64,000 bases of DNA from Candidatus Omnitrophota bacterium (GCA_903860135.1 CAIOPG010000009.1:37916-101915); one strand, 5' to 3'. Positions 3,714-18,747 are shown, numbered from the stretch's first letter. Translations and numbers: made by a program. The notes: a model not told the origin generated them from the letters alone.

Positions 3714-4784
3714 ATGGCAGGCAATACTTTTGGGAATATCTTTCGTGTTACGACCTTTGGCGAAAGCCATGGGAAGGCTATTGGCTGTGTGATCGACGGG
3801 GTGCCGCCGAACATCATTCTTTCTGAAAAAGATATACAGCCTGATCTTGACCGCCGTCAACCCGGCCAAAGCGCCGTGACAACAGCCCGGCAGGAAAAAG
3901 ACCAGGTTGAAATTCTTTCCGGTGTCCTTGAAGGACGGACAACAGGAACATCCCTGGCGATGATCATCCGCAATAATGATCAGCATTCTGCGGATTATGC
4001 GGCCATCAAGGATGTCTTTCGTCCGGGGCACGCGGATTATACTTATTTCAAGAAATTCGGCATCCGCGACCATCGCGGCGGTGGCAGGTCATCGGGCCGC
4101 GAAACAGCCGCCCGTGTGGCCGCCGGCGCTGTGGCTAGGAAAATTCTGGCGCTGGAAGGTGTCCGTATCCTGGCGTATACCCTTTCCGTCGGTGATGTCC
4201 GTGCGGAAAGCATCAATTATGATGTCATTGAACAGAATATCGTTCGTTCACCGGATATGCGCCAGGCCCAGGCCATGATCGCCAGGATCAACGCGGTGAA
4301 AGAAAGTGGCGATTCTATCGGCGGTATTGTGGAAGGTGTCATCCTGGGTTGTCCCGCCGGCTGGGGGGATCCTGTTTTTGATAAACTTGAGGCCAGGCTT
4401 GCCTACGCCATGCTTTCTATCGGCGCCGTGAAAGGGATCGAGTTCGGGGCAGGGTTTGCTGCGGCCGCGATGACAGGGTCTGAGCACAATGACACGCCGG
4501 TCATTGAAGATACCTATCTTAAGACATCGAACAATCTGGCTGGCGGCATTGTCGGCGGTATCAGTACCGGCGAAGGGATCCGTTTCCGTCTTGCTGTCAA
4601 ACCAACCTCATCGATCGCGCGCCCGCAGATAGCGGCCTACAAGGATCTGGCCCTGCAATCCATCCAGATCCAGGGGCGCCATGATCCATGCCTTTGCCCG
4701 CGCATGGTCCCTGTTGTTGAGGCCATGGCCGCCCTGGTGCTGGTCGACGCTTTGCTAATGCAAAAGACAGTCCTTCCTTCATGA
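3714..4784 (+). CDS. aroC: chorismate synthase
   Basis: N-terminus MAGNTFGNIFRVTTFGESHGKAIGCVIDGVPP and GGGRSSGRETAARVAAGA are chorismate synthase hallmarks. 356 aa. Confidence 0.9.
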   Translation: MAGNTFGNIFRVTTFGESHGKAIGCVIDGVPPNIILSEKDIQPDLDRRQPGQSAVTTARQEKDQVEILSGVLEGRTTGTSLAMIIRNNDQHSADYAAIKDVFRPGHADYTYFKKFGIRDHRGGGRSSGRETAARVAAGAVARKILALEGVRILAYTLSVGDVRAESINYDVIEQNIVRSPDMRQAQAMIARINAVKESGDSIGGIVEGVILGCPAGWGDPVFDKLEARLAYAMLSIGAVKGIEFGAGFAAAAMTGSEHNDTPVIEDTYLKTSNNLAGGIVGGISTGEGIRFRLAVKPTSSIARPQIAAYKDLALQSIQIQGRHDPCLCPRMVPVVEAMAALVLVDALLMQKTVLPS

Positions 4785-5656
4785 AGGCCTTGCGTCCGCG
4801 TGTTATCCTGATCACAGGCTGTTCGAGCGGCTTCGGCTTATTAACGGCCGCGAGGCTTTCTGCGGCGGGGCATCATGTCCATGCGTGCCTGCGCGACTTG
4901 AAGAAACGGGGGCCGCTCGAAGCTGAAACAGTCGCGCGTAAAGGTATGGCCAACCTTTTTATCCATCAGATGGACGTCGCGGATATTGCATCTGTAAAGG
5001 CCGCTGTGGCTGAAATCGTCGCGCACGAAGGTTTTATGGATGTCCTGATAAACAATGCGGGTTTTGGCATCGGAGGTTTTTTTGAAGACCTTTCCGACGC
5101 AGACTGGCGCCAGCAGTTCGACACCAATTTTTTCGGTGTCCTTAATGTCACACGCGCGGTCCTTCCGTTGATGCGTCAACGCCGCTGTGGCCGTATCATC
5201 AATATATCGAGCATGGCCGCATTTTCAGGGTCTCCGGCGTTCAGTGCTTATGTGTCGAGCAAGTGGGCCCTCGAAGGCTTTTCAGAATGTCTTTATATGG
5301 AATTAAAACCTTTCGGCATTGACGTTGTTTTGGTTGAACCCGGTTCTTACCGTACCGGGATATTTGATCAAAATGCCCGTTATGCCCAATATTTTTTTGA
5401 TCAGAAAAGCCCTTATTACCCGATGAGCCAGCGCTTAAAGGCGTTCATCGAGAAATATATCCGCCGCTCCCTCCGTTCACCCGAAGAAGTGGCGGTTGTT
5501 CTTGAAAAGCTTTCCACAAGTCCTCATGTCAGCTTCCGTCATGTCATCGGCCTCGTGTCCCGGTTACGCTGTTGGACTGTGCGGCATATGCCGTTCAAGT
5601 TCTATGCCTGGATGCTCGGTAAAATATTTCTCAGCCGCCCTAAACCGCATGACTGA
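4781..5656 (+). CDS. short-chain dehydrogenase/reductase family oxidoreductase
   Basis: ATGA overlap with aroC. Rossmann motif TGCSSGFG, NNAG, and the catalytic S...YxxSK (YVSSKWA). Confidence 0.8.
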   Translation: MKALRPRVILITGCSSGFGLLTAARLSAAGHHVHACLRDLKKRGPLEAETVARKGMANLFIHQMDVADIASVKAAVAEIVAHEGFMDVLINNAGFGIGGFFEDLSDADWRQQFDTNFFGVLNVTRAVLPLMRQRRCGRIINISSMAAFSGSPAFSAYVSSKWALEGFSECLYMELKPFGIDVVLVEPGSYRTGIFDQNARYAQYFFDQKSPYYPMSQRLKAFIEKYIRRSLRSPEEVAVVLEKLSTSPHVSFRHVIGLVSRLRCWTVRHMPFKFYAWMLGKIFLSRPKPHD

Positions 5657-7838
5657 ACCAGCCTCATTCCTTCACCGCTGTTCGCTGGTCAAAAGGATAC
5701 CTGTCTTTTCCGGGTTGAGCTGGTTCCGTGTGCAGTCCATTGCCAGATCCGGCGAGATCATATTGTACAAGAAAGGGGACATTGTTTCCCGCAAAGGCAA
5801 TGCGCCCGACTTTGTCTATTTCCTTGATTCCGGCCGTTTGCAGTCATACTCGCCAGATGCTTCGGGCGGGAAAGATGATATTGAATTCATTCACCGCGGC
5901 ATGTTCTTCGGGATCATTTCCACCTTGACGGGGCAGGAACATTCCCAGACGTTTGAAGCCATCAATGATTCCATCATTTTCCGCATTCCGTTCACAGCTT
6001 TCCGGCGGTTGCTCAAACAGGCTCCGCGGCTGGGCATCAAATTCAGCAAGATCCTTTCCCAGCGCATCCGCAGCAAGCTCACACGCACGGAACTGGTGAG
6101 CCGCAGTACCATCATTTCAGTTTATGCGCCTATCGCCGGTTCGGGCGGATCTACGTATGCCGTCAATCTGGCGCTGAGCCTTTCCAAGGAAACAGGGCGA
6201 CGGGTGATATGGGTCAGTATCCGTTCCAGGCATTTTCCACCTTACACGGCGGTATCTGATATCAGCGAAGTCCGCCCGGCGTGGACCCGCGATCCTTTGG
6301 ATATCATCGCCCTTGCCGATAATTTTGAACTTATCCCCGGGCATATCATTAAAAGCGATGCCGGCATTGACCTTTTGAACGTGGTTTTTGACCCGAAAGA
6401 CCCTTCCATTGTTGAACATATCAGTGAGTTTATCAGCCGTTTCATTGATGAATACCGTTATGTGGTTCTTGATCTGCCCAGTGATATGGATGCTGTTGTC
6501 ATTAAAACGCTGTCGCAATCTGATCTTGTTCATCTCGTGATGGTGCGTAAACGCGAAGCCCTTGTGGTAGGCCGGGCTGTATTAGACAGGATCGAAGATT
6601 CTTTCAAAGATGGTTTTACCGAAGACCGCGTCAAGGTCATTATCGGCGGCGTGAGTGCCCACCGCAACATTGTCGAAGAAACGGTGCGCAGCCTTCTGGA
6701 TTATAAGGTTACAGGTTTTCTTCCGCATATCCAGCGCAAGGATTTCAGCGGGCAGGTCGATCTCGGGGCTGTTTCTTTCATGGGGCTTGATCCCGTGAGC
6801 CCCTACCGCAAGGTTGTTACCCGTATCGCGCGCGACATCTCGGGCGTATCGATCGGCCTTGTGCTCGGCGGCGGTGCCGCCTTTGGCCTGGCGCATATCG
6901 GCGTGCTCAAGGTCCTTGAAGAAGAAGGGATCCCTGTGGATATTGTAGCCGGGAGTTCGATGGGGGCATTGATCGGCAGTCTCTGGGCATCCGGTTACAA
7001 GGCCGCTGACATTGAAAAGATGGCTTTTGAATTCAGGAAAAGGTCCAATCTGATCAAATTGATCGATCTGGTCATCCCTGTTTCAGGTATTATCAGCGGT
7101 AAAGCCGTGATGTCCTGGCTGCGCGGCAAACTCGGCAAACGCACATTCCGCGATACCAAGATCCCGCTGAAAATTGTTGCCTATGACCTCATGCATCGCC
7201 GGGACCTGATCTTCAGTGAAGGTTCGATCATTGAGGCCATACGTAAAAGCATATCGATCCCCGGTGTTTTTCAACCCGTTATTTCCAAGGATCAGCTGAT
7301 CATCGATGGCGGCGTCATGAACCCGTTGCCAACCGATGTCCTGATCCATGCCGGTGTCAAACGCATCATTGCGGTGAATGTGCTTCAGTCGCCCGAAGAT
7401 GTTATCAAGGGTTACGAAAAAACAAGCCGCGAACTGGAGAAGTCACTGCAAGTGCAATTCATGCATGCCCCCCTGGAATACATCACCATCCACATCAAGT
7501 TATGGCTCAGCCGTAAATTCTTTCCCAATATCTCCGACATCATGGTGCGCACCCTTGAAGCTTCCGAAAGCACCCTGGCCGTCCAGAGTGGTCGGGCCGC
7601 CGATGTCCTGATCCATCCTGATCTGTCAGGCCTCAACTGGTACGACCTTCATCAAGCCGAGCTCCTGATCAACCAAGGCGAAGCCGCCGCCCGCGCCAGC
7701 CTCGATCAATTGAGACGCATCGTGACGCATCCGGGACCAGATAACCGAAAAAATATTAGTGTCAGGTCTCCCGAAAGTCAAAATATTAATATTAGTGTCA
7801 CGAATATTAGTGTCAGGTCTCCCGAAAGTCATATGTAA
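5649..7838 (+). CDS. cyclic-nucleotide-binding domain / degenerate ParA-MinD-like domain / patatin-like phospholipase fusion protein
   Basis: ATG at 5649 is in frame with ORF 5496-7838 and overlaps the SDR stop. The N-terminal region is a cNMP-binding (CAP_ED-like) fold. The middle region resembles a ParA/MinD fold whose Walker A has lost its lysine (VYAPIAGSGGSTYAVNLALSL). The C-terminal patatin domain has GGGAAFGLAHIGV, the GSSMG nucleophile elbow and DGG. Confidence 0.75.
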   Translation: MTEPASFLHRCSLVKRIPVFSGLSWFRVQSIARSGEIILYKKGDIVSRKGNAPDFVYFLDSGRLQSYSPDASGGKDDIEFIHRGMFFGIISTLTGQEHSQTFEAINDSIIFRIPFTAFRRLLKQAPRLGIKFSKILSQRIRSKLTRTELVSRSTIISVYAPIAGSGGSTYAVNLALSLSKETGRRVIWVSIRSRHFPPYTAVSDISEVRPAWTRDPLDIIALADNFELIPGHIIKSDAGIDLLNVVFDPKDPSIVEHISEFISRFIDEYRYVVLDLPSDMDAVVIKTLSQSDLVHLVMVRKREALVVGRAVLDRIEDSFKDGFTEDRVKVIIGGVSAHRNIVEETVRSLLDYKVTGFLPHIQRKDFSGQVDLGAVSFMGLDPVSPYRKVVTRIARDISGVSIGLVLGGGAAFGLAHIGVLKVLEEEGIPVDIVAGSSMGALIGSLWASGYKAADIEKMAFEFRKRSNLIKLIDLVIPVSGIISGKAVMSWLRGKLGKRTFRDTKIPLKIVAYDLMHRRDLIFSEGSIIEAIRKSISIPGVFQPVISKDQLIIDGGVMNPLPTDVLIHAGVKRIIAVNVLQSPEDVIKGYEKTSRELEKSLQVQFMHAPLEYITIHIKLWLSRKFFPNISDIMVRTLEASESTLAVQSGRAADVLIHPDLSGLNWYDLHQAELLINQGEAAARASLDQLRRIVTHPGPDNRKNISVRSPESQNINISVTNISVRSPESHM
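7752..7831. repeat. 29-bp perfect direct repeat (aatattagtgtcaggtctcccgaaagtca) x2 plus a partial copy between
   Basis: Identical 29-mers at 7752-7780 and 7803-7831 and a partial attagtgtca at 7791-7800. They encode the duplicated ISVRSPES tail of the patatin-fusion protein. Confidence 0.9.
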
Positions 7839-8125
7839 CAATAGCTTAAGTCTTAATCCTTGTTGATGATGTGCCGTAATAGACTTCGCGAAATAGGGTG
7901 CGGTATTTTTTTGTTGCGTCGAATTTGTGGGTAATATAAGATACGGCAGGATCAGGCTACCCCAGTCTGATGGAGAGAATAGAGTTAAGTGGTATTGAAT
8001 AGACTGCAAGTAGGTGGGGTTATCTGACCTTAAAGCCGTGTCGCAGAAATCAAATCGGATAACGATGTCTGATTTTAAGAACGCTGCTATCTGTTTGTAA
8101 AGCTTGAGGGGTTTGTTATCAGTAA

Positions 8126-8138
8126 TTATAGGAAGTTT
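8126..8138. repeat. partial (13/19) copy of the att-like 19-mer (attataggaagtt)
   Basis: Matches the 3' 13 bases of the 19-bp repeat found at 9153 and 19234. Confidence 0.5.
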
Positions 8139-8285
8139 ATCGGCAATTTATTGGCAATTCGTCGGCAATAAGGTATAAATGCTTATTTCTGTTTAAATCT
8201 ACCGTGATGATGGTGTTGCATTACCCACTTGTTACATATGTCATAGTGTGTTATATTCTTACTGGATAAGAAAGGAGTATTGATT

Positions 8286-8528
8286 ATGCTACTGACAATA
8301 GATTCTCGTAAAAGGATCCCACTAGGCAAGGTTCTTCTAGACACGGATGTTACTTTGTTTGACGCCAAGGTCGACGATAGCGGAAGGATCATCCTAGAGC
8401 CTATGCGCGCAGTTCCCGAAAGGGAGGCGTGGTTATACCAGAATCCCAAGGCTCTGGATTCCGTGATGATGGGACTCAAGGACTCTACCGAAGGACGGGT
8501 TAAGACTTATATCTCAAAAGAGAAATAG
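8286..8528 (+). CDS. type II antitoxin, AbrB/MazE/SpoVT-like
   Basis: ATG is 8 nt after the RBS AAAGGAG. The SRKRIPLGKV swapped-hairpin-like N-terminus. Lies immediately upstream of the toxin gene with a 2-nt gap. Confidence 0.5.
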   Translation: MLLTIDSRKRIPLGKVLLDTDVTLFDAKVDDSGRIILEPMRAVPEREAWLYQNPKALDSVMMGLKDSTEGRVKTYISKEK

Positions 8529-8530
8529 AT

Positions 8531-8821
8531 ATGTTCAAGGTCTTAACCACGATAACATTCGACGAAGAGTTTGCCGCATTGCGTCAGCAGAGGTCTATGG
8601 TTGCCAGGGTCAAGGCGATTGAAAAAACGCTTAAGTTATTGTCTAACCCAAGGCATCCTGGTCTTCAAACGCATGAGTTTACTTCACTCAAGGGTCCTAA
8701 CGGTGCCAAGGTCTTTGAGGCGTATGCCCAGCAGAATACACCCGCAGCTTACAGAGTGTTTTGGCATTACGGCCCTGGCCGGAACGAGATCACAGTCGTT
8801 GCCTTTACGTCCCATCCGTGA
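8531..8821 (+). CDS. type II toxin, RelE/ParE superfamily-like
   Basis: 96 aa, basic. The C-terminus YRVFWHYGPGRNEITVVAFTSHP fits a RelE/ParE-type fold. Antitoxin-then-toxin gene order. Confidence 0.5.
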   Translation: MFKVLTTITFDEEFAALRQQRSMVARVKAIEKTLKLLSNPRHPGLQTHEFTSLKGPNGAKVFEAYAQQNTPAAYRVFWHYGPGRNEITVVAFTSHP

Positions 8822-8910
8822 AATAGTGACTGTTACAAATCGGTGGGACACGTACGGAATACCCACATTAACACCCCAGCCTTCAAACGCATCAATATCA
8901 TTCAGTTTTT

Positions 8911-9039
8911 GGTCCTGGCGGAGAGAAGGTTTTTGAAGCTTATGCCGAGAACAATACGCCGGTGGCGTATAGAATTTTATTTTATTACGGCCATGTCCGC
9001 AGTGAAATTGATATTCTAATGATCGTTCCGCACCCTTAA
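8911..9039 (+). pseudogene. 3' fragment of a second, diverged RelE/ParE-like toxin gene
   Basis: Translates as GPGGEKVFEAYAENNTPVAYRILFYYGHVRSEIDILMIVPHP*, colinear with the toxin C-terminus (KGPNGAKVFEAYAQQNTPAAYRVFWHYGPGRNEITVVAFTSHP*). There is no start codon or N-terminal part. Confidence 0.55.
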
Positions 9040-9152
9040 TAAAATAGGGGATGGATGAAATTTCAAACGGATACGTATAATTTTGATGGTGAAGCCTCCA
9101 GGCAACCTAATGCGTATTACTCTGATTGCTCCCGCACAGTCGTACTTAACAT

Positions 9153-9171
9153 AACATATATTATAGGAAGT
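9153..9171. repeat. 19-bp direct repeat ACATATATTATAGGAAGTT (left copy, putative attL)
   Basis: Identical 19-mer recurs at 19234-19252, 10,081 bp away. Confidence 0.8.
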
Positions 9172-9185
9172 TCGTAATATAGCGA

Positions 9186-9216
9186 TCTAGCGTAAAAGAA
9201 ACGGTAAAACGCTAGA
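9186..9216. promoter_or_regulatory. 8-bp inverted repeat tctagcgt-N15-acgctaga abutting the rep start codon (candidate operator/hairpin)
   Basis: Perfect inverted repeat ending 1 nt before the ATG at 9218. Confidence 0.3.
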
Positions 9217-9217
9217 C

Positions 9218-9877
9218 ATGCACACGCAAAACGATACAAGACACAAAACAAGCCTCAAAAAAGATTTCATCCCCACTTGGATCGAAGATCTATCCCTCCT
9301 AAAAGAATCAAACGCCTCAACCTTTGCCGTTTATCACGTTTTAAAGTTTTATGCCGTAGAATCCCCCACATTTGAGATCCACAAGATAACCGAAGGCGAC
9401 ATCCACGCTCAAACAGGACTTGAGCATAAAACCATCCGCAGGGCTCTTAACAAGCTTGAAAAGCTTGAAAAGATCATACGGATCGGATATTGCCGATACC
9501 GATTAGTTAATTTCTTTAAGTTTTCCACAACTTCGGGCAAAATGCCCGAACCTACCCAAAACCACTTCGGGCAAAATGCCCGAACCACTTCGGGCAAAAT
9601 GCCCGACAACTTCGGGCAAAATGCCCGCCCACTTCGGACAGAATGCCCGAACCCCTTATATTTTAATAGAAACGTAGACAGAGATTTAAAAGAGAGGTCT
9701 GGTGATAAATCACCAATCGAACAGCAAGAACATAACTGGTTGCGTATGCAATACCCGTTTCGTGATCGTGAAGGGTTAAAACAGCATTTAGTTAATAGAG
9801 GCTATTCAGAGCATGACGCAACGATGTTTATGGAAAGTTTTTATCAAGAATATACAGGAAAGGCTGGTGGCAAATGA
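9218..9877 (+). CDS. replication initiator protein (lambda O-like, iterons inside its own gene)
   Basis: 219 aa. N-terminal winged-helix-like region. The central segment is encoded by the iteron array (TSGKMPEPTQNHFGQNARTTSGKMPDNFGQNARP). Confidence 0.6.
   Translation: MHTQNDTRHKTSLKKDFIPTWIEDLSLLKESNASTFAVYHVLKFYAVESPTFEIHKITEGDIHAQTGLEHKTIRRALNKLEKLEKIIRIGYCRYRLVNFFKFSTTSGKMPEPTQNHFGQNARTTSGKMPDNFGQNARPLRTECPNPLYFNRNVDRDLKERSGDKSPIEQQEHNWLRMQYPFRDREGLKQHLVNRGYSEHDATMFMESFYQEYTGKAGGK
9529..9650. repeat. iteron array: 5 copies of palindromic cTTCGGGCAaaaTGCCCGAa (putative replication origin)
   Basis: Copies start at 9531, 9565, 9588, 9610 and 9632 (the last is degenerate: cttcggacagaatgcccga). 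Spacing is ~22 bp for four of them. Each unit contains the inverted repeat TCGGGCA/TGCCCGA. An AT-rich tract follows at 9655-9700. Confidence 0.75.
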
Positions 9878-10176
9878 CAGGAACACAGGTTTGTATGGAA
9901 TTTGACGGAAAAACGTTTGAAAGGAACATGGACGGCCAAAGGCTACGGACACAGCTTGAGCAAGTCTTTGATCTGATGAAAGACGCCTCTTGGCGAACAT
10001 TGCAAGAGATCGCACTTCTTTCCGGTTGTCCAGAGGCATCAATTTCCGCAAGGCTTCGAGATCTCCGCAAGGCAAAGTTTGGCAAGCACAACGTCAACCG
10101 CCGCAGACGTCCGTTGCATGACATTTTCGGGGTTTGGGAATATCAGCTTTTAACGGCTTATAACGGGCTTTATTGA
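9874..10176 (+). CDS. hypothetical winged-HTH-like DNA-binding protein
   Basis: ATGA overlap with rep. 100 aa, basic. Confidence 0.4.
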   Translation: MTGTQVCMEFDGKTFERNMDGQRLRTQLEQVFDLMKDASWRTLQEIALLSGCPEASISARLRDLRKAKFGKHNVNRRRRPLHDIFGVWEYQLLTAYNGLY

Positions 10177-10188
10177 AAGGGGTTTTTA

Positions 10189-10364
10189 TGTTCGGGATGG
10201 AGATTTTAACGGATAAGAAAAAACAGGCCGAGCTTGGCGAGATCGCGCAACGTGTCCTGGGCACGATCAATGAAACGTATCGGCTGGCGAAGGAAAACAA
10301 CGAGATGCTCAAGGATCTGACGGCTTCGGTCGCATGGGCTAAACCAAAGAAAAAGGAGGCGTGA
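10189..10364 (+). CDS. small hypothetical protein
   Basis: ATG preceded by GAAAGGGG. 58 aa, coiled/charged. Confidence 0.3.
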
Positions 10365-10579
10365 ATATGTTCGGATTGATTTTTATATCGTCGGTGTTGG
10401 TTGTTCTAGTGGTCGCTATCCGTTTATCCTCTACATACGAGGTTAAACACGGGCTCATTAACTTGAGAAAGGACATGCCAGATGAAACACTTTCATTGTC
10501 AGATGTGCGAACAGATGCTGGACGGTCAGCCGAAAATGAGGTTTGCTCTGATCGGGTTTTGTTGGGAGCCGTCGCTTAA
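10361..10579 (+). CDS. small membrane protein (single TM)
   Basis: Hydrophobic N-terminus LIFISSVLVVLVVAI. Overlaps the next ORF, so one of the two probably starts later. Confidence 0.25.
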   Translation: MNMFGLIFISSVLVVLVVAIRLSSTYEVKHGLINLRKDMPDETLSLSDVRTDAGRSAENEVCSDRVLLGAVA

Positions 10580-10859
10580 CAAGGATCCCAGCGAGTTATT
10601 GAATATTTGCGAGGCTTGCCAGCACGCTTTTCTGAAAGCCTACGCGAAAGCAAAGAACGAGTGCCTTGAGGCAGTTTACGAGAAGCAAAAAACGGCTTGG
10701 ATTATGGACAAGATGGAAGGCTTGGAAAAAGCGCGCGGCAGGGTGAGCGTTGGATCTGCAAGGACAGTCAACCGCCTATCCCCCGCACAGGAAGCAATGG
10801 CCGATAATGGGCGCTGGAATTACAGCCACAACGAAGCGCAAAAGGTTTGGAGGTTTTAA
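10482..10859 (+). CDS. zinc-finger (2x CxxC) protein
   Basis: HCQMCEQM ... ICEACQHAF. Start uncertain (alternative ATGs at 10503 and 10536). Confidence 0.4.
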   Translation: MKHFHCQMCEQMLDGQPKMRFALIGFCWEPSLNKDPSELLNICEACQHAFLKAYAKAKNECLEAVYEKQKTAWIMDKMEGLEKARGRVSVGSARTVNRLSPAQEAMADNGRWNYSHNEAQKVWRF

Positions 10860-10861
10860 GA

Positions 10862-11071
10862 ATGCGATATGACAATGTAGAGCGTGAATGTAAGAATTTC
10901 CTTCAAAGAATATCTGGATCCGAAAACGCAAGCGGCGGGATTGTTCCACCTGAACATGCTTTGTCCTTCGCCCACCTTGATAAAGATGAAGCATGTTTGT
11001 TCTATTCCGCAGAGTGCCAAGAAGGAAGATACCTTGTAATAATGCAGCCTAAAATTAAAGGAGGCGCATAA
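10862..11071 (+). CDS. hypothetical protein
   Basis: GGAGG RBS 8 nt upstream of the ATG. 69 aa. Confidence 0.35.
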   Translation: MRYDNVERECKNFLQRISGSENASGGIVPPEHALSFAHLDKDEACLFYSAECQEGRYLVIMQPKIKGGA

Positions 11072-11428
11072 ATGGCAAAGTCAGCAACGAGTTTTGCAAA
11101 GAAGGTTTTTGAAGCGCCGTGTCCTTCATGTCACAGCAAGGATGCAATCGGTAAAACCCGTTGTCCATGTGGCGCACAGCGCAGGGCAAATGGTCAGGTT
11201 TATTTTGACGGCAAAGACATTGAAAAGCCCGTTGCGCCCGTGTCCGAGCCCGTCAAATCACCCGTTAAAACAAAAACGGGCTCTCCGTCGGTGAGCCCAT
11301 TAAAAAAAAGGAGCCCGTCAAATGGTAAGAAAGAGCCCGTCAAAAGCCCGTCAAAAACCCGTGTTGAGCCCGTCACCGAGCCCGTCCGAGCCCGTGAAAG
11401 TAGCCTCTCCACATACTTCTATGACTGA
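11072..11428 (+). CDS. Zn-ribbon protein with lysine/proline/serine-rich (histone H1-like) tail
   Basis: AAGGAGG RBS. CPSCHS...CPCGAQ followed by (E)PVKSP repeats. Confidence 0.45.
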   Translation: MAKSATSFAKKVFEAPCPSCHSKDAIGKTRCPCGAQRRANGQVYFDGKDIEKPVAPVSEPVKSPVKTKTGSPSVSPLKKRSPSNGKKEPVKSPSKTRVEPVTEPVRARESSLSTYFYD

Positions 11429-11915
11429 TCCGGAAAATGTGAGAATGAGCGCACAGGATTCGGGGCTGGATGATCTTGTTGCAAAGCTGGGATCCGGTGC
11501 AAGTGCGCCAGCGGCCGATCCCTCCCCCGCTATGGTTGAGCCGGCAGATCTTGAGATATATAAAAGGCTGGTTAAGCCGGTTTGTTTGGTGGCCGGCTGG
11601 GGCATCGACAAGATCAACCGGCGCTTTCTTAAGTGTGAGTTCACGCCGTTCACGGATGGTCAGGTCGCCATGCTTGAGGATGATCTATCTTTTGTATTAA
11701 AGGACGCGCTGGACAAGATCTTGCCAGACATGGCCAAGAAAAACCCGCGCATGGTGTCGCTTGTGATGATCTTCGGGATGATCTACGCATCCAACACGCG
11801 CCGGATCATAGAGGCGCCGAAGCCGGCAGAGCCAGCCAAAGAAACAAAGCCCGTGCCGAGCGTGCATGAGGTTCACATCAAAACAGCAGAAGGCGTGATC
11901 GGGGGCATTCAATGA
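11421..11915 (+). CDS. hypothetical protein (ATGA-overlapping start; the ORF track extends it upstream to 11322)
   Basis: ATG at 11421 overlaps the stop of the preceding gene in the typical phage fashion. The upstream extension overlaps the previous CDS by 107 nt. Confidence 0.4.
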   Translation: MTDPENVRMSAQDSGLDDLVAKLGSGASAPAADPSPAMVEPADLEIYKRLVKPVCLVAGWGIDKINRRFLKCEFTPFTDGQVAMLEDDLSFVLKDALDKILPDMAKKNPRMVSLVMIFGMIYASNTRRIIEAPKPAEPAKETKPVPSVHEVHIKTAEGVIGGIQ

Positions 11916-12386
11916 GGATAGACAATATCATCAACCTTTGGGATCCGCGCCAGCGCGGGTGCGGCGTGGTGTTCGTTCCGTTTGGGATCTACATTTTCAA
12001 AGGATACATGACGCTTGAGGTGCTTAATTTTCGGATCAACATTTCATTTAAAAGGGATTAACCATGTCACACGCTTGCGCTTCATGCGCCTTTTGGCGCC
12101 GGATTAACCCGTATGATGCCGGCGAATGCCGCAAGAACGCGCCGCAACCTTCACAAGGCGGCTACAAGTTCCCCGTTACGGATCCGCATGTGTATTGCGG
12201 CCAATGGTCAACCGAGTTCAGAAAGGATGCTCCAAATGCCTAAGTGCGATTTCTTCATTATCCCGATGTTTACGTCGATGACACCCGTGCGGCTTCAAGT
12301 GTTCGATTTCGTGGCCTATCGGGTCGGCGGCGTCAGTTATTGGAGCATAACGATCTTAAATTTCGTCTTTGTTGTGGGGGTATAAA

Positions 12387-12632
12387 GTGAAAATTACAAA
12401 ATGGGTCAGCGTTGATGTTGAGGTTGACGTTGACGTATCAAGTGAGGATATACCGGAAATCTTTTCAAAGTCGTGTGAATGCTACCATGATTTCTTGGCG
12501 ATATTGAACAGGTTCTTTTCTGTAATGAAGAACATGCCGGATCACATTATTAAGGACATGACGGAGAAACAGCGTGAAATAACAAAAAACTACCTTATTG
12601 AACAGTCAAAAAGGTTTTCAGATGCACAATGA
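12387..12632 (+). CDS. small acidic hypothetical protein
   Basis: GTG start. 81 aa. Ends inside the ATPase start region. Confidence 0.3.
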   Translation: MKITKWVSVDVEVDVDVSSEDIPEIFSKSCECYHDFLAILNRFFSVMKNMPDHIIKDMTEKQREITKNYLIEQSKRFSDAQ

Positions 12633-13233
12633 AATCATCGTCATTCTAGGCAAGAAAGGATCTGGCAAAACGGTCATGGCGCGGCATATGGTCAGCGACA
12701 AGCGCCGTCTGATCGTCTACGATCCCATGCGGCAGTTTTCGTCATGCGGCGTCGTGCTGGTGCGCTTCGAGGATCTTGTTGCCTACATCAGCCACAACAG
12801 GCGCGGCCACTTCCGCGCGGTTTACCAGCCAGAGATCCCGATTGATGCAACAAACGACATAGTGCGTGCCGAGTTCATCCGCATGTGTGATCTGGTCAAT
12901 CGGCTGGTCAACGTGTATTTCCTTGTCGATGAAATTGATAATTGCCTCCCCCCGCGTGACCGTGAGAACGGCTTTTTCAAGAACATGATCCAGCGCGGCC
13001 GGCACGCGCAAGTCAGCCTTGTTGCAACGACGATCCGCTACACGGACACCCAGCGCAATTTGACCGCCCAGGCAGACACGATCATTTGCTTTCATACGCA
13101 TGAGCCGTCTGACGTTAAGTATTTCCGCAATTACTTCGGGGTCATGGCTGACGATCTCCACCAACTCCCCCCCTATCATTATGTCAAATACGATAAAGGA
13201 CAAGTCAGCCGCCATGAGCCTATCAGATTATAA
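12622..13233 (+). CDS. P-loop ATPase, putative genome-packaging ATPase (FtsK/HerA-A32-like small ATPase of membrane-containing phages)
   Basis: Walker A ILGKKGSGKT and Walker B YFLVDEIDN. ~204 aa, no TM segment. Confidence 0.55.
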   Translation: MHNEIIVILGKKGSGKTVMARHMVSDKRRLIVYDPMRQFSSCGVVLVRFEDLVAYISHNRRGHFRAVYQPEIPIDATNDIVRAEFIRMCDLVNRLVNVYFLVDEIDNCLPPRDRENGFFKNMIQRGRHAQVSLVATTIRYTDTQRNLTAQADTIICFHTHEPSDVKYFRNYFGVMADDLHQLPPYHYVKYDKGQVSRHEPIRL

Positions 13234-13730
13234 AAAAATTGATGTTGAGATTAGCGAACAGCCACTACCAGCGCAATTTGATGATGATCCAAAGATATTC
13301 CAGCAAGTGTATTTCGACGCACTTGGTGTTTTGGTCGGTATGCGCGTAAGGAAAGGAAGAAAGCGTGCCAAAGCCAAAGCGTAAAAACCAAAAAGAGTTC
13401 GCTTTTTGCCTTTGTGGATGCGGTCGGCGTTTCAGAGTTTACCCTTGCCGGCCTCAATTTTTCGCATCATCAACATGCCGCTGGCTTCTGATAAAAAAGA
13501 TACTTGCCGACTATATGCACAAAACGCACGTTTCCACGTTCTCCGTCGAGAAAAACACCGCTTAAAACCGTTTTAAAGCCACGATCTCCACTAGAGACAT
13601 GTCATTACATGGCTCTTTTTTTGTTTTATATGCGAATTCCTTCGTTTGACGAGCCCGTGAGCCTTCCGGCAATCTGAAAAGGTAATGTTCGACCATAACG
13701 GTCAACAACAAAAACCGAAAGGAAAAGCAA

Positions 13731-13841
13731 ATGTTCTCTAAAGAAGCCCTCATCAAGTTCGCGATTTTGGTTGCGGCCGTAGTGGTCGGTAACATCGCCA
13801 CCGGTTATGTTCAGGCGTTTTTGCCTAAGAAAACGGCATAA
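13731..13841 (+). CDS. 36-aa single-TM protein (virion membrane/coat-like)
   Basis: RBS GGAAAAG then ATG. MFSKEALIKFAILVAAVVVGNIATGYVQAFLPKKTA. Below the ORF-track size cutoff, found by eye. Confidence 0.35.
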   Translation: MFSKEALIKFAILVAAVVVGNIATGYVQAFLPKKTA

Positions 13842-13856
13842 GCGAAAGGAACGATC

Positions 13857-14009
13857 ATGCAGAAGTTACTTGTTTCCGTTCTTGTGGTAGTGGTCGCGAT
13901 AATCGCGGCTGGCGTGCTTCTCGATGAAGCCGGTAAAGGCACTCTTGGCGGGTTCGTTCAGAGCTTGGCTAAGAAAACAACCAGCGGCTATGGGTCGCTG
14001 AACGCTTAA
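13857..14009 (+). CDS. 50-aa single-TM protein
   Basis: RBS AAAGGA. MQKLLVSVLVVVVAIIAAGVLL... Confidence 0.35.
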   Translation: MQKLLVSVLVVVVAIIAAGVLLDEAGKGTLGGFVQSLAKKTTSGYGSLNA

Positions 14010-14033
14010 AACATTTAAAAAGGAGTTTTTCAG

Positions 14034-14885
14034 ATGCAGATATTCATGTTTCCCACAACCAGAGGATTAGGCACGATCCCAGGCGTTGCCGCTGGCGCTC
14101 TTTTGACCGCCAAGATCCCCACGAACGGCAAGAAGTACGGCTTCTTCCTTCTTGGTAAGACGGCCGCTGGCGTAGCGCTGACAGCCGCACAGCTGAACGC
14201 TGACATTGGCGACATCGTTGTCCGTGTTAAGGGTGAAGCGAAGATCGAAGCATCCTGCACAGAGTTGCTGATGATCCAGAAGTATTTAGGCGACGCGAAC
14301 GTTGCCGGCAACATCAGCGGGATCGTTCCGATCTTCCTGACGCCGCGCGATCTCGCAACGTATCAAGAACGCCGTGCGCTGGCTTGGGGCACAGCCGACA
14401 TCGACAGCATCACCATTGAGATCAAGATCGTTGGCGTGGCACAGCTCGCCAGCCTTGAGCTCTTTGAGTATGCGTCTGATGAGCAGGAAGTGCTTGGCAC
14501 TCACCTGACGATCCGCCGTTTCCCGCATTCGTTTGCGTCAACGGGCGTGCAGGAGATCTCCGACCTTGTCAGCAACGTGCCTGACATGGCGTATCGCACG
14601 ATCTTCTTGCAGAAGAACACCGCCGACATCACAAATGTCAGCTGTAAGGTCAACAACGCGCTGGTCTACGATCAGGTTCCGGAAGCGTTAAACAACGTAT
14701 TGAACGAGGACGGCAACCGCAAGGCGCAGTCTGGTTATTACGCGATTGACTTCTCCCGCATTCGCGATCTCGCAGGGATGCTCCCGATGAAGGGCATTAC
14801 GGACTTCCGCGTCACCCCGACATGGGCGACCAATGCGCCGGCGAGTTACAACATCATCGGCATCATCTATAAGGGCTTGAAATAA
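14034..14885 (+). CDS. putative major capsid protein (size and position consistent with a double jelly-roll MCP)
   Basis: RBS AAAGGAG. 283 aa, beta-rich composition, no TM segment. The largest soluble protein in the structural block. Confidence 0.45.
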   Translation: MQIFMFPTTRGLGTIPGVAAGALLTAKIPTNGKKYGFFLLGKTAAGVALTAAQLNADIGDIVVRVKGEAKIEASCTELLMIQKYLGDANVAGNISGIVPIFLTPRDLATYQERRALAWGTADIDSITIEIKIVGVAQLASLELFEYASDEQEVLGTHLTIRRFPHSFASTGVQEISDLVSNVPDMAYRTIFLQKNTADITNVSCKVNNALVYDQVPEALNNVLNEDGNRKAQSGYYAIDFSRIRDLAGMLPMKGITDFRVTPTWATNAPASYNIIGIIYKGLK

Positions 14886-14910
14886 GCCTAAATAGAAAGG
14901 GGCGTCTTGT

Positions 14911-15198
14911 ATGGCAAATGAAACGACGACGGCACAACCGTCATCATGGTTAGACACCCTCGGCGGCTGGGTAACATCAGCCGGTAAGATCTTCAACGCT
15001 GGATCCGAGGTTTACGTTGCGGCACAGCAACGGTTGAACGCGATTGAAAGCGTCAACGAGGACACGGTCAAGGCTTCAACGCCCGCCGCGCCCAAAATTG
15101 TGTCAGGTATGCCGAGTTCAATGCCGTCTTGGGTAATGCCAGCGGCAATCGCGGCCGGTGTGCTTGTTCTCATCATCATCGTGAGAAAGTTGAGGTAA
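14911..15198 (+). CDS. C-terminally membrane-anchored protein
   Basis: C-terminal TM segment PAAIAAGVLVLIIIV. Confidence 0.4.
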   Translation: MANETTTAQPSSWLDTLGGWVTSAGKIFNAGSEVYVAAQQRLNAIESVNEDTVKASTPAAPKIVSGMPSSMPSWVMPAAIAAGVLVLIIIVRKLR

Positions 15199-15201
15199 GC
15201 C

Positions 15202-15408
15202 ATGCTTCCAGCCGCAGGCGCCGCAATGATGGGAAGTTCGCCTTCCTTCTCATCTGGTGCTACATCAGGGGCAACAGGAAGATCGGGCGATATTACGAGT
15301 TCGTATATGTCAGGCGACTTCACGGTCGGTGGTGACAAAAACATGATCTGGATATTCGTTGTCGCCGGTGCAGTAGCAATCGCCTTTTTCGCGTTCAAAG
15401 GTAAGTAA
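15202..15408 (+). CDS. C-terminally membrane-anchored protein
   Basis: C-terminal TM segment IWIFVVAGAVAIAFFAF. Confidence 0.4.
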   Translation: MLPAAGAAMMGSSPSFSSGATSGATGRSGDITSSYMSGDFTVGGDKNMIWIFVVAGAVAIAFFAFKGK

Positions 15409-15816
15409 GTGATAGTCACGGCCAGAAAAACGGCCTATGACGATCAAAAGCATCGTGTTCTTTTAGAAAAGATAGATCCAGCCGTCGGCGTGGCATGCCT
15501 TGCCGGCACGGTTCAGAGAGATCTGATAATGCTCTTTGAGGTTCACGCCGACGGCCTTCTCCTTGGGATATTCTTGGCAAGGATTGACCGCCTGATTGAT
15601 GGCGGCCGCGATCTGGTTATATGCCACGCGGCGGCAGTTGATAAGCCATCGATAGCCATGACAAGGATCCTAAATGCGATCTTTGACCAAGTCGCCCGTG
15701 ATTATGGGCTTAACTCGGTACGGATCCACTCGGACAAGAAGGGGCTGGATCGAATAATGGAAAAAAACAATTACGTATTTCAAGAGGCCGTTTATAGAAA
15801 GGTCATAGATGTCTAA
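15409..15816 (+). CDS. hypothetical soluble protein
   Basis: GTG start abutting the previous stop. 135 aa. Confidence 0.35.
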   Translation: MIVTARKTAYDDQKHRVLLEKIDPAVGVACLAGTVQRDLIMLFEVHADGLLLGIFLARIDRLIDGGRDLVICHAAAVDKPSIAMTRILNAIFDQVARDYGLNSVRIHSDKKGLDRIMEKNNYVFQEAVYRKVIDV

Positions 15817-16195
15817 GTCAGGCTCAAGCTCAACAAGTTCATCCACCACACAGAACAACAGCGAAGATAATCGCGTTGTCGGTGAGGGCGGCTCGCTTGT
15901 TCTTGGAAAAGATGCGATCTATAACGTGGCAAACGAGCTATCCCCCAACATGCTTGCCGCGCTCAATTCCTTTGTAGGTTTGGTGCGTGACGCCGGCACG
16001 GTTGTTGTTGATACGGCTGACAAGGCCAATCAATCCGCACAGGCCAGCATTGCGGCCGTCACCAGCGCGATCCAGAACGACAAGACAGGCACAACCACAA
16101 CAGAGCAATCAATCGTCAAATACATCCCGCTTGTTATCGGCGCGGGCATCATCATTTTTGTGTTGATTAAGATGTTTAACGGAAAGAAGGCATAA
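15809..16195 (+). CDS. Ser/Thr-rich protein with C-terminal TM anchor
   Basis: C-terminal TM segment IPLVIGAGIIIFVLI. Confidence 0.4.
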   Translation: MSKSGSSSTSSSTTQNNSEDNRVVGEGGSLVLGKDAIYNVANELSPNMLAALNSFVGLVRDAGTVVVDTADKANQSAQASIAAVTSAIQNDKTGTTTTEQSIVKYIPLVIGAGIIIFVLIKMFNGKKA

Positions 16196-16196
16196 C

Positions 16197-16781
16197 ATGC
16201 AGGGATCATCCTATCAAAGCATTACGCTTGTTTTATTGGCCGGAGAAACGCGCGCGGTGATGGCTTATGGCCGTTATCTCCGCATCTTGGACAATTCAAT
16301 CGCGACGCATCCACAAGTAAAGATCGCTGACAACCCCGAACAGGAGTTACAGGCCGGCGTTGGCATTGAGATCTTCGGAGGTCAGGAGAATTCCTTCTCT
16401 AATGTTCTTGTTCGCAACCCTGCGGCTGGTGTAATGACGCTAAAGATCGCCATTTCCAGCGGCCAGATTGACGACAGCAGATTGACGCTGACAGGCACAA
16501 TTTTGACACAGCCAGCACAGACAGCAACAGGCACGGACGCGGCAGACATAACAACCGGCGCCGCCGCAAAGGTGTTTTCGTCCGCTTCTTGTAAGTCGGT
16601 TTTGATACAGGCAGACTTCACGAACGGCGCAAACGTGTTTTTAGGTTTTGCAAATACTGTCAGCGCAACGCGCAAGGTGATCGCGCTTTCCGCTGGCATG
16701 GCGTTTCAGTTCGATAATTTCAACGGCGATATATGGGCGTATTCCGCCGCCGCGCAAAAAATATCTGTTTCTTCTTGGTAA
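16197..16781 (+). CDS. putative virion structural protein
   Basis: 194 aa, beta-rich, Gly/Ala/Thr-rich. Confidence 0.4.
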   Translation: MQGSSYQSITLVLLAGETRAVMAYGRYLRILDNSIATHPQVKIADNPEQELQAGVGIEIFGGQENSFSNVLVRNPAAGVMTLKIAISSGQIDDSRLTLTGTILTQPAQTATGTDAADITTGAAAKVFSSASCKSVLIQADFTNGANVFLGFANTVSATRKVIALSAGMAFQFDNFNGDIWAYSAAAQKISVSSW

Positions 16782-16795
16782 AGAAAGGCACTTAA

Positions 16796-17791
16796 ATGAT
16801 TGTTACGCCTCCTTTTAATTCAGCTGTATTAAATACCATTTGGGCGAATATCGCACTTCTGGCCTTCCGCGATCAGGTATTTGACAGCGTTGCCGTTCAA
16901 AAGATGGTGGATGGCTTTGTTGACGAGTACGAGGACGAGACTGGAGTTTACCTTGTAAATTCTACTGGTCAAGTTTATGACAGCACAAATGATTTCTATT
17001 CACCGTCGTTCGCGGCCGCCCTTGTCGCCTATAACACCGGAACGGAAGTCAAAGATACAACCAACAATATAGGAAACGGCTTTAATAATACGACCGTACA
17101 GACGGCGGCTAATTCTGAACGTAAACTTATTTCAGGAAGCGGCTCCGGCGCGCTTTATATCGGTAAAGATTGGGGGGTAGGAAATTCTAAAATAATTTCG
17201 GGCTTCAAAATTTATGCGCCATCCAACGAGAAAATATCTCAAACATTAAACACCGTCACGTTAAAACTTCGTGGCTCAAATAACGGGTCGTCCTGGACTG
17301 ATTTAATGACAACGACCGTTTTCGCAGGTAATGCAGGTGACGTTATTGATGTAACCACCGGCATAACGACAACAACAGGTTATCGCTACCATTCTGTTTA
17401 TATTCTTGAAACTGCTGGTTGGGGCTCTGGCGATCACTATTTGCAAGTCGCGGAAGTTCAGTTTTATGAACAGTCCGTGAACAATAATATGTCATTGGTC
17501 AGCAACCCTTTTACTGCCGTAACACAGGCAAACAAGGCGCGTATTGTTGTTTTCCAAGAGGACGTTGACGCAATAACCCTCAATACTGATTTGATAGCCA
17601 GCGTTTCACGCGGTGTTAATTATACGCCAGTAGTTCTTTCAAACATGGGAACGTATGAAACAGGCAAAAATATTCTTGTAGGGCTGGTTGATATTTCAGG
17701 TCAGCCCGCCGGAACAAATATGCGGTATAAACTCGATACCGCCAACAGTAAAAATTTAAAAATTCACGGAACGGGGCTCTTATGGCAATAA
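16796..17791 (+). CDS. putative spike / receptor-binding protein
   Basis: 331 aa with Asn/Thr/Gly-rich beta-sandwich-like C-terminal half. Size similar to the PM2 spike. Confidence 0.4.
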   Translation: MIVTPPFNSAVLNTIWANIALLAFRDQVFDSVAVQKMVDGFVDEYEDETGVYLVNSTGQVYDSTNDFYSPSFAAALVAYNTGTEVKDTTNNIGNGFNNTTVQTAANSERKLISGSGSGALYIGKDWGVGNSKIISGFKIYAPSNEKISQTLNTVTLKLRGSNNGSSWTDLMTTTVFAGNAGDVIDVTTGITTTTGYRYHSVYILETAGWGSGDHYLQVAEVQFYEQSVNNNMSLVSNPFTAVTQANKARIVVFQEDVDAITLNTDLIASVSRGVNYTPVVLSNMGTYETGKNILVGLVDISGQPAGTNMRYKLDTANSKNLKIHGTGLLWQ

Positions 17792-17912
17792 AACGATTAA
17801 CAGTTCAATCTGGTGCGTCAGATGCAAAGATCGACGCGCTGATCGAGAAGCTCAAGACTAAAGGCGTGATCTCCGCCGTTGAAGCTGACGACGCAAAGAA
17901 AGGCAAGAAATA

Positions 17913-18104
17913 ATGTGGTTCCTTCTCCCCCTGATCGGCCTTGGCGGTGCATTCGTTGGCGCTCAAGTGGATAACGCGGTGCAGAGTTCAGCGGCCGCGC
18001 CTCAAGTGATCGACCAGAGCAAAGCGCCTTGGTGGATCCCCTATCTGATCGCCGGCATTGTCGGCCTGATCGCGTGGCAGTTCATCAAAAAGGCGGTCAA
18101 ATGA
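17913..18104 (+). CDS. small 2-TM membrane protein
   Basis: Two hydrophobic helices. Confidence 0.35.
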   Translation: MWFLLPLIGLGGAFVGAQVDNAVQSSAAAPQVIDQSKAPWWIPYLIAGIVGLIAWQFIKKAVK

Positions 18105-18222
18105 TAGATGCCATGCAGTTTGCAGTTGTTCTCACGTTGGGGATCGCTTGCGGCTGGGGCGCTACGCTGTACCTTATCGGGTGCGGCTACTTCCAAGATG
18201 ATTTTGACAAGCTGGGGCGCCC

Positions 18223-18450
18223 ATGATCGCATGGCTCAAAAAGCTCCTTTCAGGTTTTAATTTCGGATCCGGCGCCGTGATCGGCAAATGGATCTTTTAC
18301 CTTTGTGTTTTTGCCGTGTTCATGTTCGGGTGGTCAACCATGACCGGCAAGAAAACAACGACGAGCCAGAAGGCCGAGCAAATGACAAACTACACCTACA
18401 CGCCGCAACAGACATTCGGTTGCATGCGTATTGACGTGAAAGGCAACTGA
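18223..18450 (+). CDS. small membrane protein
   Basis: TM segment WIFYLCVFAVFMFGW. Confidence 0.35.
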   Translation: MIAWLKKLLSGFNFGSGAVIGKWIFYLCVFAVFMFGWSTMTGKKTTTSQKAEQMTNYTYTPQQTFGCMRIDVKGN

Positions 18451-18747
18451 TGAACATTGAAACGGCTTTCCAGCTTCTTAACACGGCTTTAGTGGCTGTT
18501 TGCGCGTTCAGCCTTAACAGCATGGCCGGCGACATCCGCGAGATCCGCGCCGACATCAAGACGCATATTTCTGATCACACGGTTCATTGCAAATATCCAA
18601 CAACGAAAGGTTGCTAACATGGCAGATCTGATCCCCACGAATTTCAAAGTCACCGTTGACATAACCCCAGGCGCTATGATCTTTTTAGGCGCGGCGATCG
18701 TTTTCATCGTCTTTACAGCTAAATAAGATCTCGCCTAACCCCTCACC

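Follow-up and report, generated by a model that had tools for sequence, protein, structure and literature searches.

The window analysed here, a 64,000-nt stretch of a Candidatus Omnitrophota bacterium contig (CAIOPG010000009.1), carries on its plus strand a gene for a 729-residue protein that joins a cyclic nucleotide-binding (CNB)-fold sensor, a degenerate ParA/MinD-fold domain and a patatin lipase in one chain. We interpret this protein, with a probability of about 0.55 for the package as a whole, as a soluble cytoplasmic, ligand-regulated phospholipase or lysophospholipase of the NTE/RssA type that opens lipid catabolism, with the pseudo-ATPase as its coupling or dimerisation module. The identities of the three domains are close to certain, and a catabolic role of the lipase is on balance favoured; the scaffold mechanism assigned to the pseudo-ATPase is drawn by analogy and is tentative.

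Domain organization of the fusion protein

The open reading frame (ORF), as called and translated, begins with the ATG at 5649 and ends with the stop codon at 7836-7838. Its main parts are the following.

5649..7838 (stop included), plus strand: whole gene, CNB/ParA-like/patatin protein of 729 aa (ORF call, translation)
5667..6083, plus strand: N-terminal cNMP-binding-fold sensor, residues 7-145, with a long C-helix (126-145) at its end (Pfam, Foldseek, secondary structure of the model)
6078..6101, plus strand: flexible linker joining sensor and ParA-like domain, residues 144-151 (full-length model pLDDT under 50)
6102..6842, plus strand: degenerate ParA/MinD-fold (CpaE/TadZ-like) domain, residues 152-398
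6846..7727, plus strand: RssA/YchK-type patatin-like phospholipase module, residues 400-693 (Pfam, NCBIfam, Foldseek)
7728..7835, plus strand: lineage-specific disordered C-terminal tail of 36 aa (absent from homologues; pLDDT 25-29; 51-bp tandem duplication)

The sensor matched Pfam cNMP_binding (PF00027) over residues 40-124 with an E-value of 2.6e-15 and 56.6 bits against a cut-off of 27.5, and the beta-barrel with its phosphate-binding cassette is present, which places the domain among the CNB proteins. Foldseek searches of the PDB returned the CNB domain of MloK1 (TM-score 0.85), together with the sensor domains of HCN2, CRP and DNR. At the other end of the protein, Pfam Patatin (PF01734) aligned over its entire profile (1-191 of 191) with residues 404-566 (E 1.7e-32, 113.6 bits versus a cut-off of 27.7). 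The NCBIfam RssA/YchK model NF007623 aligned over positions 4-298 of 301 with residues 400-693 at 136 bits, below the RssA equivalog cut-off of 272 bits. The closest structure to the C-terminal part was PlpD (5fya; E 1.5e-18, TM-score 0.83, 30-32% identity), and patatin 1oxw and CapE matched as well, confirming the patatin fold.

The middle region was recognized mainly through its fold and its relatives. Pfam AAA_31 reached residues 154-298 with an E-value of 2.9e-5 and 24.5 bits, just below the cut-off of 27, and the window protein reached the cut-off of none of the curated profiles AAA_31, CbiA and ParA; other family members do reach AAA_31 (28 of 54 at E ≤ 0.001, best E 4.5e-17). Foldseek matched the middle domain to the Chlorobium 'ParA family ATPase' 3ea0 (E 1e-11), and a profile built from the domain retrieved 3ea0, PF-32, Soj and ParA by sequence alone (E 3.5e-9 to 4e-6), consistent with a ParA/MinD fold. 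The three domains had been called in an earlier note made from the sequence alone, which staked its proposal on the ParA/MinD likeness of the middle region; Pfam and Foldseek bear out all three calls, and the likeness held.

A full-length AlphaFold model built with 52 homologues had a mean pLDDT of 81 and a pTM of 0.69, and a separate model of residues 146-398 reached a pLDDT of 89. In the full-length model a low-confidence hinge (residues 144-151) follows the sensor, and about three residues lie between the last middle-domain helix and the first patatin strand; the ParA-like domain is thus modelled as fused rigidly to the lipase, almost linker-free. Neither a signal peptide nor a transmembrane segment was found in the protein. 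The most hydrophobic stretch is the buried first strand of the patatin core, and the N-terminal membrane anchor of NTE/PNPLA6-type lipases is missing.

The start codon is supported by conservation of M1 in at least 90% of the 52 aligned homologues. The C-terminal tail contains two exact 29-mers, AATATTAGTGTCAGGTCTCCCGAAAGTCA, at 7752-7780 and 7803-7831, 51 nt apart, where none would be expected by chance; they encode a repeated NISVRSPES, and no further copies were found in the window or in related loci.

The lipase is predicted to be active

Conservation was assessed by column counts in 115 full-length close relatives of 45-82% identity. In the patatin module these counts single out three elements.

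6867..6875, plus strand: oxyanion-hole glycines G407-G408-G409, invariant or nearly so
6951..6965, plus strand: nucleophile elbow G435-S-S437-M-G439, with S437 in 115/115
7305..7313, plus strand: catalytic Asp motif D553-G-G, in 115/115

The module therefore has the Ser-Asp dyad (GxSxG and DG[GA]) and the glycine-rich oxyanion hole that define patatins. Because these motifs are invariant among the relatives, the lipase should be catalytically intact and active. The motifs quoted in the earlier note (G407GG, G435SSMG439 and D553GG here, G164-S-G-G-S-T169 in the middle domain) are all present.

The sensor pocket departs from the canonical cAMP/cGMP site

In canonical cNMP receptors the Glu of the phosphate-binding cassette contacts the ribose (2'-OH) and the cassette Arg contacts the phosphate. 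The corresponding segment of the window protein is as follows.

5898..5951, plus strand: non-canonical phosphate-binding cassette GMFFGIISTLTGQEHSQT, residues 84-101 (alignments, column counts)

Residue alignment to the CNB domains of PKG and of Toxoplasma placed I89 at the position of the cassette Glu, H98 at that of the Arg and S99 at that of the Ser/Thr, so that both contact residues of a canonical cassette are missing. The replacement extends across the family: H98 was found in 115/115 and I or V at position 89 in 113/115 of the close relatives, and in a wider set of 169 three-domain proteins His occupied the cassette-Arg position in 165, with the phosphate-binding Arg absent from all 169. 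The cassette Glu is retained solely in divergent members, whose consensus reads FGE...PHS. The residues lining the pocket (R83, G84, F87, G88, T94, G95, H98 and S99) are nearly invariant, and the pocket thus appears to be under selection yet distinct from the standard cAMP/cGMP site. With I89 and H98 in place of Glu and Arg, and with His in 165/169 members, canonical gating of the lipase by cAMP or cGMP is doubtful. The cassette on which the earlier note relied is present as a structure, but its cNMP contacts are gone, and the label 'cyclic-nucleotide-gated' is not supported.

The same substitutions might mean that the CNB-fold domain binds no ligand at all and serves as an autoinhibitory or protein-contact module, comparable to the CNB-homology domains of KCNH and plant K+ channels. 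The family-wide loss of the Arg fits this explanation, as does the presence of plant GORK CNB-homology domains among the matches; however, near-invariance of the eight pocket residues fits a retained site, and the canonical FGE motif is kept in the divergent members, which makes a ligand-free sensor unlikely in our judgement.

The ParA/MinD-like domain has lost key residues of an ATPase

Three elements of the middle domain bear on nucleotide hydrolysis.

6123..6158, plus strand: degenerate P-loop YAPIAGSGGSTY, residues 159-170 (register from canonical KGGVGK[ST] relatives)
6204..6227, plus strand: strand 2, VIWVSIRS, residues 186-193, in which S190 replaces the switch-I (Walker A') Asp (alignment to PF-32 and Soj)
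6459..6479, plus strand: retained Walker B strand YVVLDLP, residues 271-277, with D275 (column counts)

In the register V158-Y-A-P-I162-A-G-S-G-G167-S168-T169, I162 stands at the signature Lys and G167 at the Walker A Lys, and S168 and T169 line up with the [ST]T after the Walker Lys, S168 being the Ser/Thr of GK[ST]; both lysines of the deviant Walker A motif KGGxxGK[ST] are therefore lacking. Position 167 is variable among the 115 close relatives (Ser 77, Gly 29, Asn 6, Lys 1). S168 (115/115) and G166 are invariant, as are G164 and T169 of the P-loop and D275, L276 and P277 of the Walker B strand. Since neither lysine nor the switch-I Asp is left, a non-hydrolysing role is a sensible reading, and in the clade of the window the domain probably cannot work as a normal ATPase. 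The earlier suggestion of a Lys-free, probably non-hydrolysing P-loop is reinforced by the additional loss of the signature Lys and the switch-I Asp.

Across the 169 three-domain proteins, 120 lacked both a Walker Lys/Arg and the switch-I Asp, 13 kept Lys and Asp together and 7 carried Arg with Asp; GK[ST] or a close variant of it is found in all the non-fused relatives. Because divergent fusions keep the Walker Lys and the non-fused relatives have GK[ST], the dead P-loop appears to be derived within an older fusion family, and is not a defining trait of the triple architecture. The nearest non-fused relatives are proteins of about 400 aa with a receiver (REC) domain and a MinD-like domain in the CpaE/TadZ/Ssd layout, and the best solved relative, 3ea0, reads KGGDGGS and so has no Walker Lys. 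The middle domain probably descends from CpaE/TadZ-like ATPases. Walker-Lys loss and cassette-Glu loss are statistically associated (Fisher p 2e-6), but shared ancestry confounds the association, and it was not used as evidence.

Alternatively, the domain might still hold ATP or ADP without hydrolysing it and act on the lipase as a nucleotide-dependent dimerisation or energy-state switch, as proposed for TadZ. Invariance of G164, G166, S168, T169 and D275 despite the lost lysines suggests that nucleotide binding could persist, which would alter the mechanism proposed below. Consistent with such a switch, 3ea0 also lacks the Walker Lys, the members with Lys or Arg plus Asp described above exist, and the atypical Walker A motif of TadZ is reported to bind ATP for dimerisation (PMC13170226, citing Xu 2012). 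The joint loss of the two lysines and the switch-I Asp, however, removes the main phosphate and Mg/water contacts, and the Gly, Ser and Thr could be conserved for structural reasons only, to keep the loop geometry. We regard the switch as improbable.

Descent from the same relatives raises another explanation, namely that the ParA/MinD-like domain is a localisation tag that docks the lipase to an envelope machine or pole, possibly for use against host or prey lipids by these ultra-small, host-dependent bacteria. The job of the CpaE/TadZ-type relatives is localisation (PMC13170226), and host-dependent traits are described for Omnitrophota (PMC10066038). Set against these points, no tad or secretion genes adjoin the lipase gene in any surveyed locus, the domain is internal and so has no C-terminal amphipathic helix, and the protein is without an export signal. 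Docking by this domain is thus quite improbable.

The fusion is a conserved chromosomal gene of Omnitrophota

The 120 matches listed in a sequence search had 45-100% identity, nearly all of them being full-length proteins of about 695 aa that span 95% of the window protein; the best named relative, 82% identical, comes from a Candidatus Omnitrophota metagenome-assembled genome (MAG), and an identical 729-aa protein is present on 6 public contigs. The homologues are named 'patatin-like phospholipase family protein', 'NTE family protein', 'RssA/BcsQ' or 'RssA/Mrp', and PF13614 is already annotated on many of them. The middle-domain pattern was found at 67 loci in species-representative genomes, nearly all Omnitrophota MAGs, and an exhaustive search with the middle-domain profile gave 224 cluster representatives at E ≤ 1e-10. 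The best of these were proteins of 640-715 aa in which the domain occupies the same place; of 54 long profile matches, 51 contained both cNMP_binding and Patatin. One protein cluster, which includes the homologue at locus L075, has a member named Verrucomicrobiae. The family thus consists of hundreds of Omnitrophota MAG orthologues with divergent ones elsewhere; it is not a one-off, and in Omnitrophota the gene is chromosomal and conserved. The survey of distribution that the earlier note had recommended accordingly found an abundant architecture whose pieces the databases already annotate.

Gene neighbourhoods link the lipase to fatty-acid and glycerol use

The gene directly upstream of the lipase in the window is the following.

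4781..5656, plus strand: SDR (short-chain dehydrogenase/reductase)-family oxidoreductase gene, generic SDR by NCBIfam, with an 8-nt overlap with the lipase start

The shared 8 nt, ATGACTGA, hold the start codon of the lipase gene and the stop of the SDR gene, and the two genes are probably co-transcribed. To place this arrangement in the family, ORFs were called in 74 loci and neighbours were clustered, which left 63 non-redundant loci with enough upstream sequence. A FadE-like acyl-CoA dehydrogenase of 618 aa lay directly upstream on the same strand in 28/63 loci, mostly with a 4-nt overlap or a gap of less than 190 nt (spacing of -4 to +187 nt, with one of -80). SDR genes took this place in 14/63 loci, which make up the clade of the window and mostly show the same 8-nt overlap, and methyltransferase genes in 8/63. 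Genes for FadB and thiolase stood farther upstream in about 21 loci, and hemCD, hemB, hemL and a cupin gene were found downstream of the lipase. In one locus (L003), a giant ORF at 10852-18082 with WD40/beta-propeller repeats lies two genes downstream of the orthologous lipase; it encodes 3247 aa before running off the locus and belongs with the very long proteins that Omnitrophota are reported to have.

Pfam annotation of 13 loci, including those of six divergent homologues, showed lipid genes in other arrangements: four of the six divergent homologues are set in lipid-catabolic operons that differ in gene order. At L075 the lipase is accompanied, in this order, by acyl-CoA synthetase, hydrolase, thiolase and FadB, and at L079 by thiolase, 3-hydroxyacyl-CoA dehydrogenase, enoyl-CoA hydratase, acyl-CoA dehydrogenase and acyl-CoA synthetase. 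Two further divergent homologues, which keep the Walker Lys (L076, 5672-7894; L077, 6526-8004), have an FGGY glycerol kinase gene upstream, directly so in L077, where thiolase, 3-hydroxyacyl-CoA dehydrogenase, enoyl-CoA hydratase and acyl-CoA synthetase are also present. At L076 a glycerophosphodiester phosphodiesterase (GDPD) gene stands between the glycerol kinase and lipase genes, and beta-oxidation genes follow (3-hydroxyacyl-CoA dehydrogenase, enoyl-CoA hydratase, the beta and alpha subunits of electron transfer flavoprotein (ETF), and acyl-CoA synthetase). Taken together, the L076 and L077 arrangements outline a complete phospholipid-breakdown operon. That the link to fatty-acid and glycerol use survives rearrangement is the strongest functional clue to the role of the lipase.

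Several observations weigh against the catabolic reading. By tblastn no beta-oxidation genes were found near the window gene, where the neighbours in its clade are leuCD, aroC and the SDR gene, and no fad, hem or cupin neighbours were found inside the window, the cupin and other downstream neighbours having been displaced by an insertion; the catabolic link therefore rests on other clades. Lipid genes are absent from 2 of the 6 divergent contexts, and much of the adjacency to acyl-CoA dehydrogenase may be inherited synteny and thus not independent evidence.

The neighbourhoods also bear on the earlier proposal of a second-messenger-triggered membrane effector. On such a reading a cyclic nucleotide made during infection or stress would bind the CNB domain and release the lipase against the cell's own membrane, as in the cyclic oligonucleotide-based antiphage signalling system (CBASS) effectors CapV/CapE or in the pyrimidine cyclase system for antiphage resistance (Pycsar). 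The patatin fold does resemble the CapE/CapV structures (Foldseek E about 1e-12 to 1e-11), the Pycsar CNB-TIR effector 8jsk is among the sensor-domain matches, and PADLOC gave weak phospholipase and TIR matches. Against this, both cNMP-contacting residues are replaced, and no cyclase or CD-NTase (cGAS/DncV-like nucleotidyltransferase) turned up when 13 loci were annotated with Pfam, nor did the conserved clusters of neighbours include one. Over the Omnitrophota loci surveyed, the gene keeps a constant chromosomal synteny beside housekeeping and lipid-catabolic genes, unlike defence islands, and the model scores are low: 16.4 bits against a cut-off of 200 for the CBASS lipase, 23 against 400 for the DS2 antiphage lipase and at most 24 bits for PADLOC. 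PADLOC, the NCBIfam CBASS and DS2 models and the neighbourhood surveys thus led us to reject a defence effector as the principal explanation, and we consider it highly improbable.

A proposed route from sensor to lipid catabolism

From the domain identities, motif states, family distribution and neighbourhoods described above we infer a substrate, a class of ligand, dimerisation and a direction of regulation. The lipase would strip fatty acids from glycerophospholipids, by comparison with NTE/Nte1 and with PNPLA7, a lysophosphatidylcholine hydrolase (PMC5704489). The freed fatty acids would enter acyl-CoA synthetase and beta-oxidation, and the glycerophosphodiester and glycerol would pass to GDPD and glycerol kinase. 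The CNB-fold sensor is proposed to set lipase activity in response to a ligand other than canonical cAMP/cGMP; in SWS, mutating the CNB sites abolishes function (PMC12710771). The signal would pass through the flexible hinge to the ParA/MinD-fold domain, which appears rigidly joined to the lipase. There the pseudo-ATPase would most likely act as a scaffold for dimerisation or coupling, holding two lipase domains in position. This role is suggested because the atypical Walker A motif of TadZ is reported to serve dimerisation and CapV/CapE are activated by oligomerisation, and the CapV/CapE filament structures 9ion and 9kej indicate that oligomerisation can activate bacterial patatins (PMC12480259).

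The scheme can be carried further. A ParA/MinD fold turned into an allosteric or dimerisation module, combined with a 'His-type' CNB domain that reads a metabolite other than a cNMP, might gate phospholipid scavenging in ultra-small, host-dependent Omnitrophota and perhaps, judging by one named homologue, in Verrucomicrobiota. We hold this extension to be rather doubtful; if the 'His-type' gatekeeper did prove true, the Walker-Lys members would document a stepwise decay from an ATP-dependent switch to a pseudo-ATPase. The series from Walker-Lys to fully degenerate P-loops shows a ParA/MinD ATPase decaying to a pseudo-enzyme inside a fusion protein. The lipase is also a likely entry point of lipid catabolism in the Omnitrophota, which are uncultured and whose nutrition and host dependence are poorly understood.

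A downstream insertion and other features of the window

Relative to the locus of the closest genome (L008), the window contains an insertion of about 11.4 kb at 7840-19300. In L008 a gene that we read from its sequence as MutY-like directly follows the lipase gene, and its homologue in the window is at 19303-20430 on the minus strand. The insert contains the following ORFs.

8280-8528: antitoxin-like ORF
8531-8821: small unmatched ORF adjoining the antitoxin-like ORF
9218-9877: replication-initiator-like ORF
12598-13233: terminase large subunit fragment
14034-14885: major-head-like gene

A 19-bp sequence, ACATATATTATAGGAAGTT, occurs in two exact direct copies, at 9154-9172 and 19234-19252, and these could form the attachment (att) pair of a small element, phage-like or satellite; no tRNA genes that might serve as integration target were found in the window. 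Five direct repeats of about 29 nt with the core CTTCGGGCAAAATGCCCGA, spaced 22-34 nt apart at 9528-9657 inside the replication-initiator-like ORF, look like iterons. The sequence after the lipase gene differs among the contigs that carry the identical 729-aa protein: one contig ends 189 nt past the stop, and another has, in place of the insert, a Y1_Tnp transposase gene (IS200/IS605-type or REP-associated) about 210 nt downstream. At 22000-28000 the GC content falls to 0.38-0.43, compared with about 0.5 elsewhere, and this region, with long ORFs at 24771-26357 and 26354-27994 on the minus strand, may be another foreign segment.

Comparison with known systems

The literature searched gave no description of a CNB-ParA-patatin fusion, of a His-type cassette or of this operon context; a search for patatins in Omnitrophota gave nothing relevant, and the main Omnitrophota paper names no patatin or lipase. 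The earlier statement that the architecture is not a described one therefore holds, within that literature, for the triple fusion, but not for the pairing of sensor and patatin, which is the known design of NTE/PNPLA6/PNPLA7.

The CpaE/TadZ proteins and 3ea0 share the fold of the middle domain. Unlike them, the window protein has a CNB domain and not an N-terminal REC-like sensor, a C-terminal lipase and no tad locus nearby, which sets it outside the CpaE/TadZ group, and it is more degenerate, having kept neither the two P-loop lysines (signature and Walker) nor the switch-I Asp. CBASS CapV/CapE and the Pycsar effectors resemble it as patatin lipases under nucleotide-type control. CapV, however, binds its signal on the lipase itself and adjoins a CD-NTase, whereas the window protein scores far below the cut-offs of the family models, has no adjacent cyclase and is encoded by a conserved chromosomal gene. 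RssA/YchK and PlpD have the same Ser-Asp dyad and oxyanion glycines, and residues 400-693 superpose on PlpD; neither carries the two regulatory domains at the N-terminus, and PlpD is secreted as the passenger of an autotransporter.

Mycobacterium tuberculosis Rv2565 is similar in joining a bacterial CNB domain to a lipid esterase, and its catalytic domain is patatin/NTE-like. Rv2565 has two domains and is not known to contain a ParA/MinD insert. Its CNB domain has been listed (PMC4886424), and the esterase has a role in phosphatidylcholine metabolism (PMC10865251).

The closest design is that of NTE/PNPLA6/Swiss-cheese, PNPLA7 and yeast Nte1, in which a CNB-fold sensor likewise stands N-terminal to the patatin in one chain, the likely shared chemistry being deacylation of phospholipids to glycerophosphodiester and fatty acids. 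A Toxoplasma multi-CNB protein (9ya0) matched the family profile in three stretches (E 3.9e-32). Unlike the NTE group, the window protein has a single CNB domain instead of three and lacks a membrane anchor at its N-terminus; it carries a whole ParA/MinD-fold domain between sensor and lipase and His for the cassette Arg, and its patatin part is closest to the bacterial RssA and PlpD. Apparently new here are the triple fusion, the His-type cassette and the operon context; the pairing of sensor and patatin was already known in eukaryotes and bacteria; we see neither a new kind of system nor a sign of new catalytic chemistry. In SWS the CNB part is documented to regulate the lipase, and what the CNB domains do in NTE/PNPLA6, a gene of human disease, is still unexplained (PMC12710771). 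Control of a patatin by such a sensor would be far simpler to study in this soluble bacterial protein, which has a single sensor and a single lipase and whose operon context is clear.

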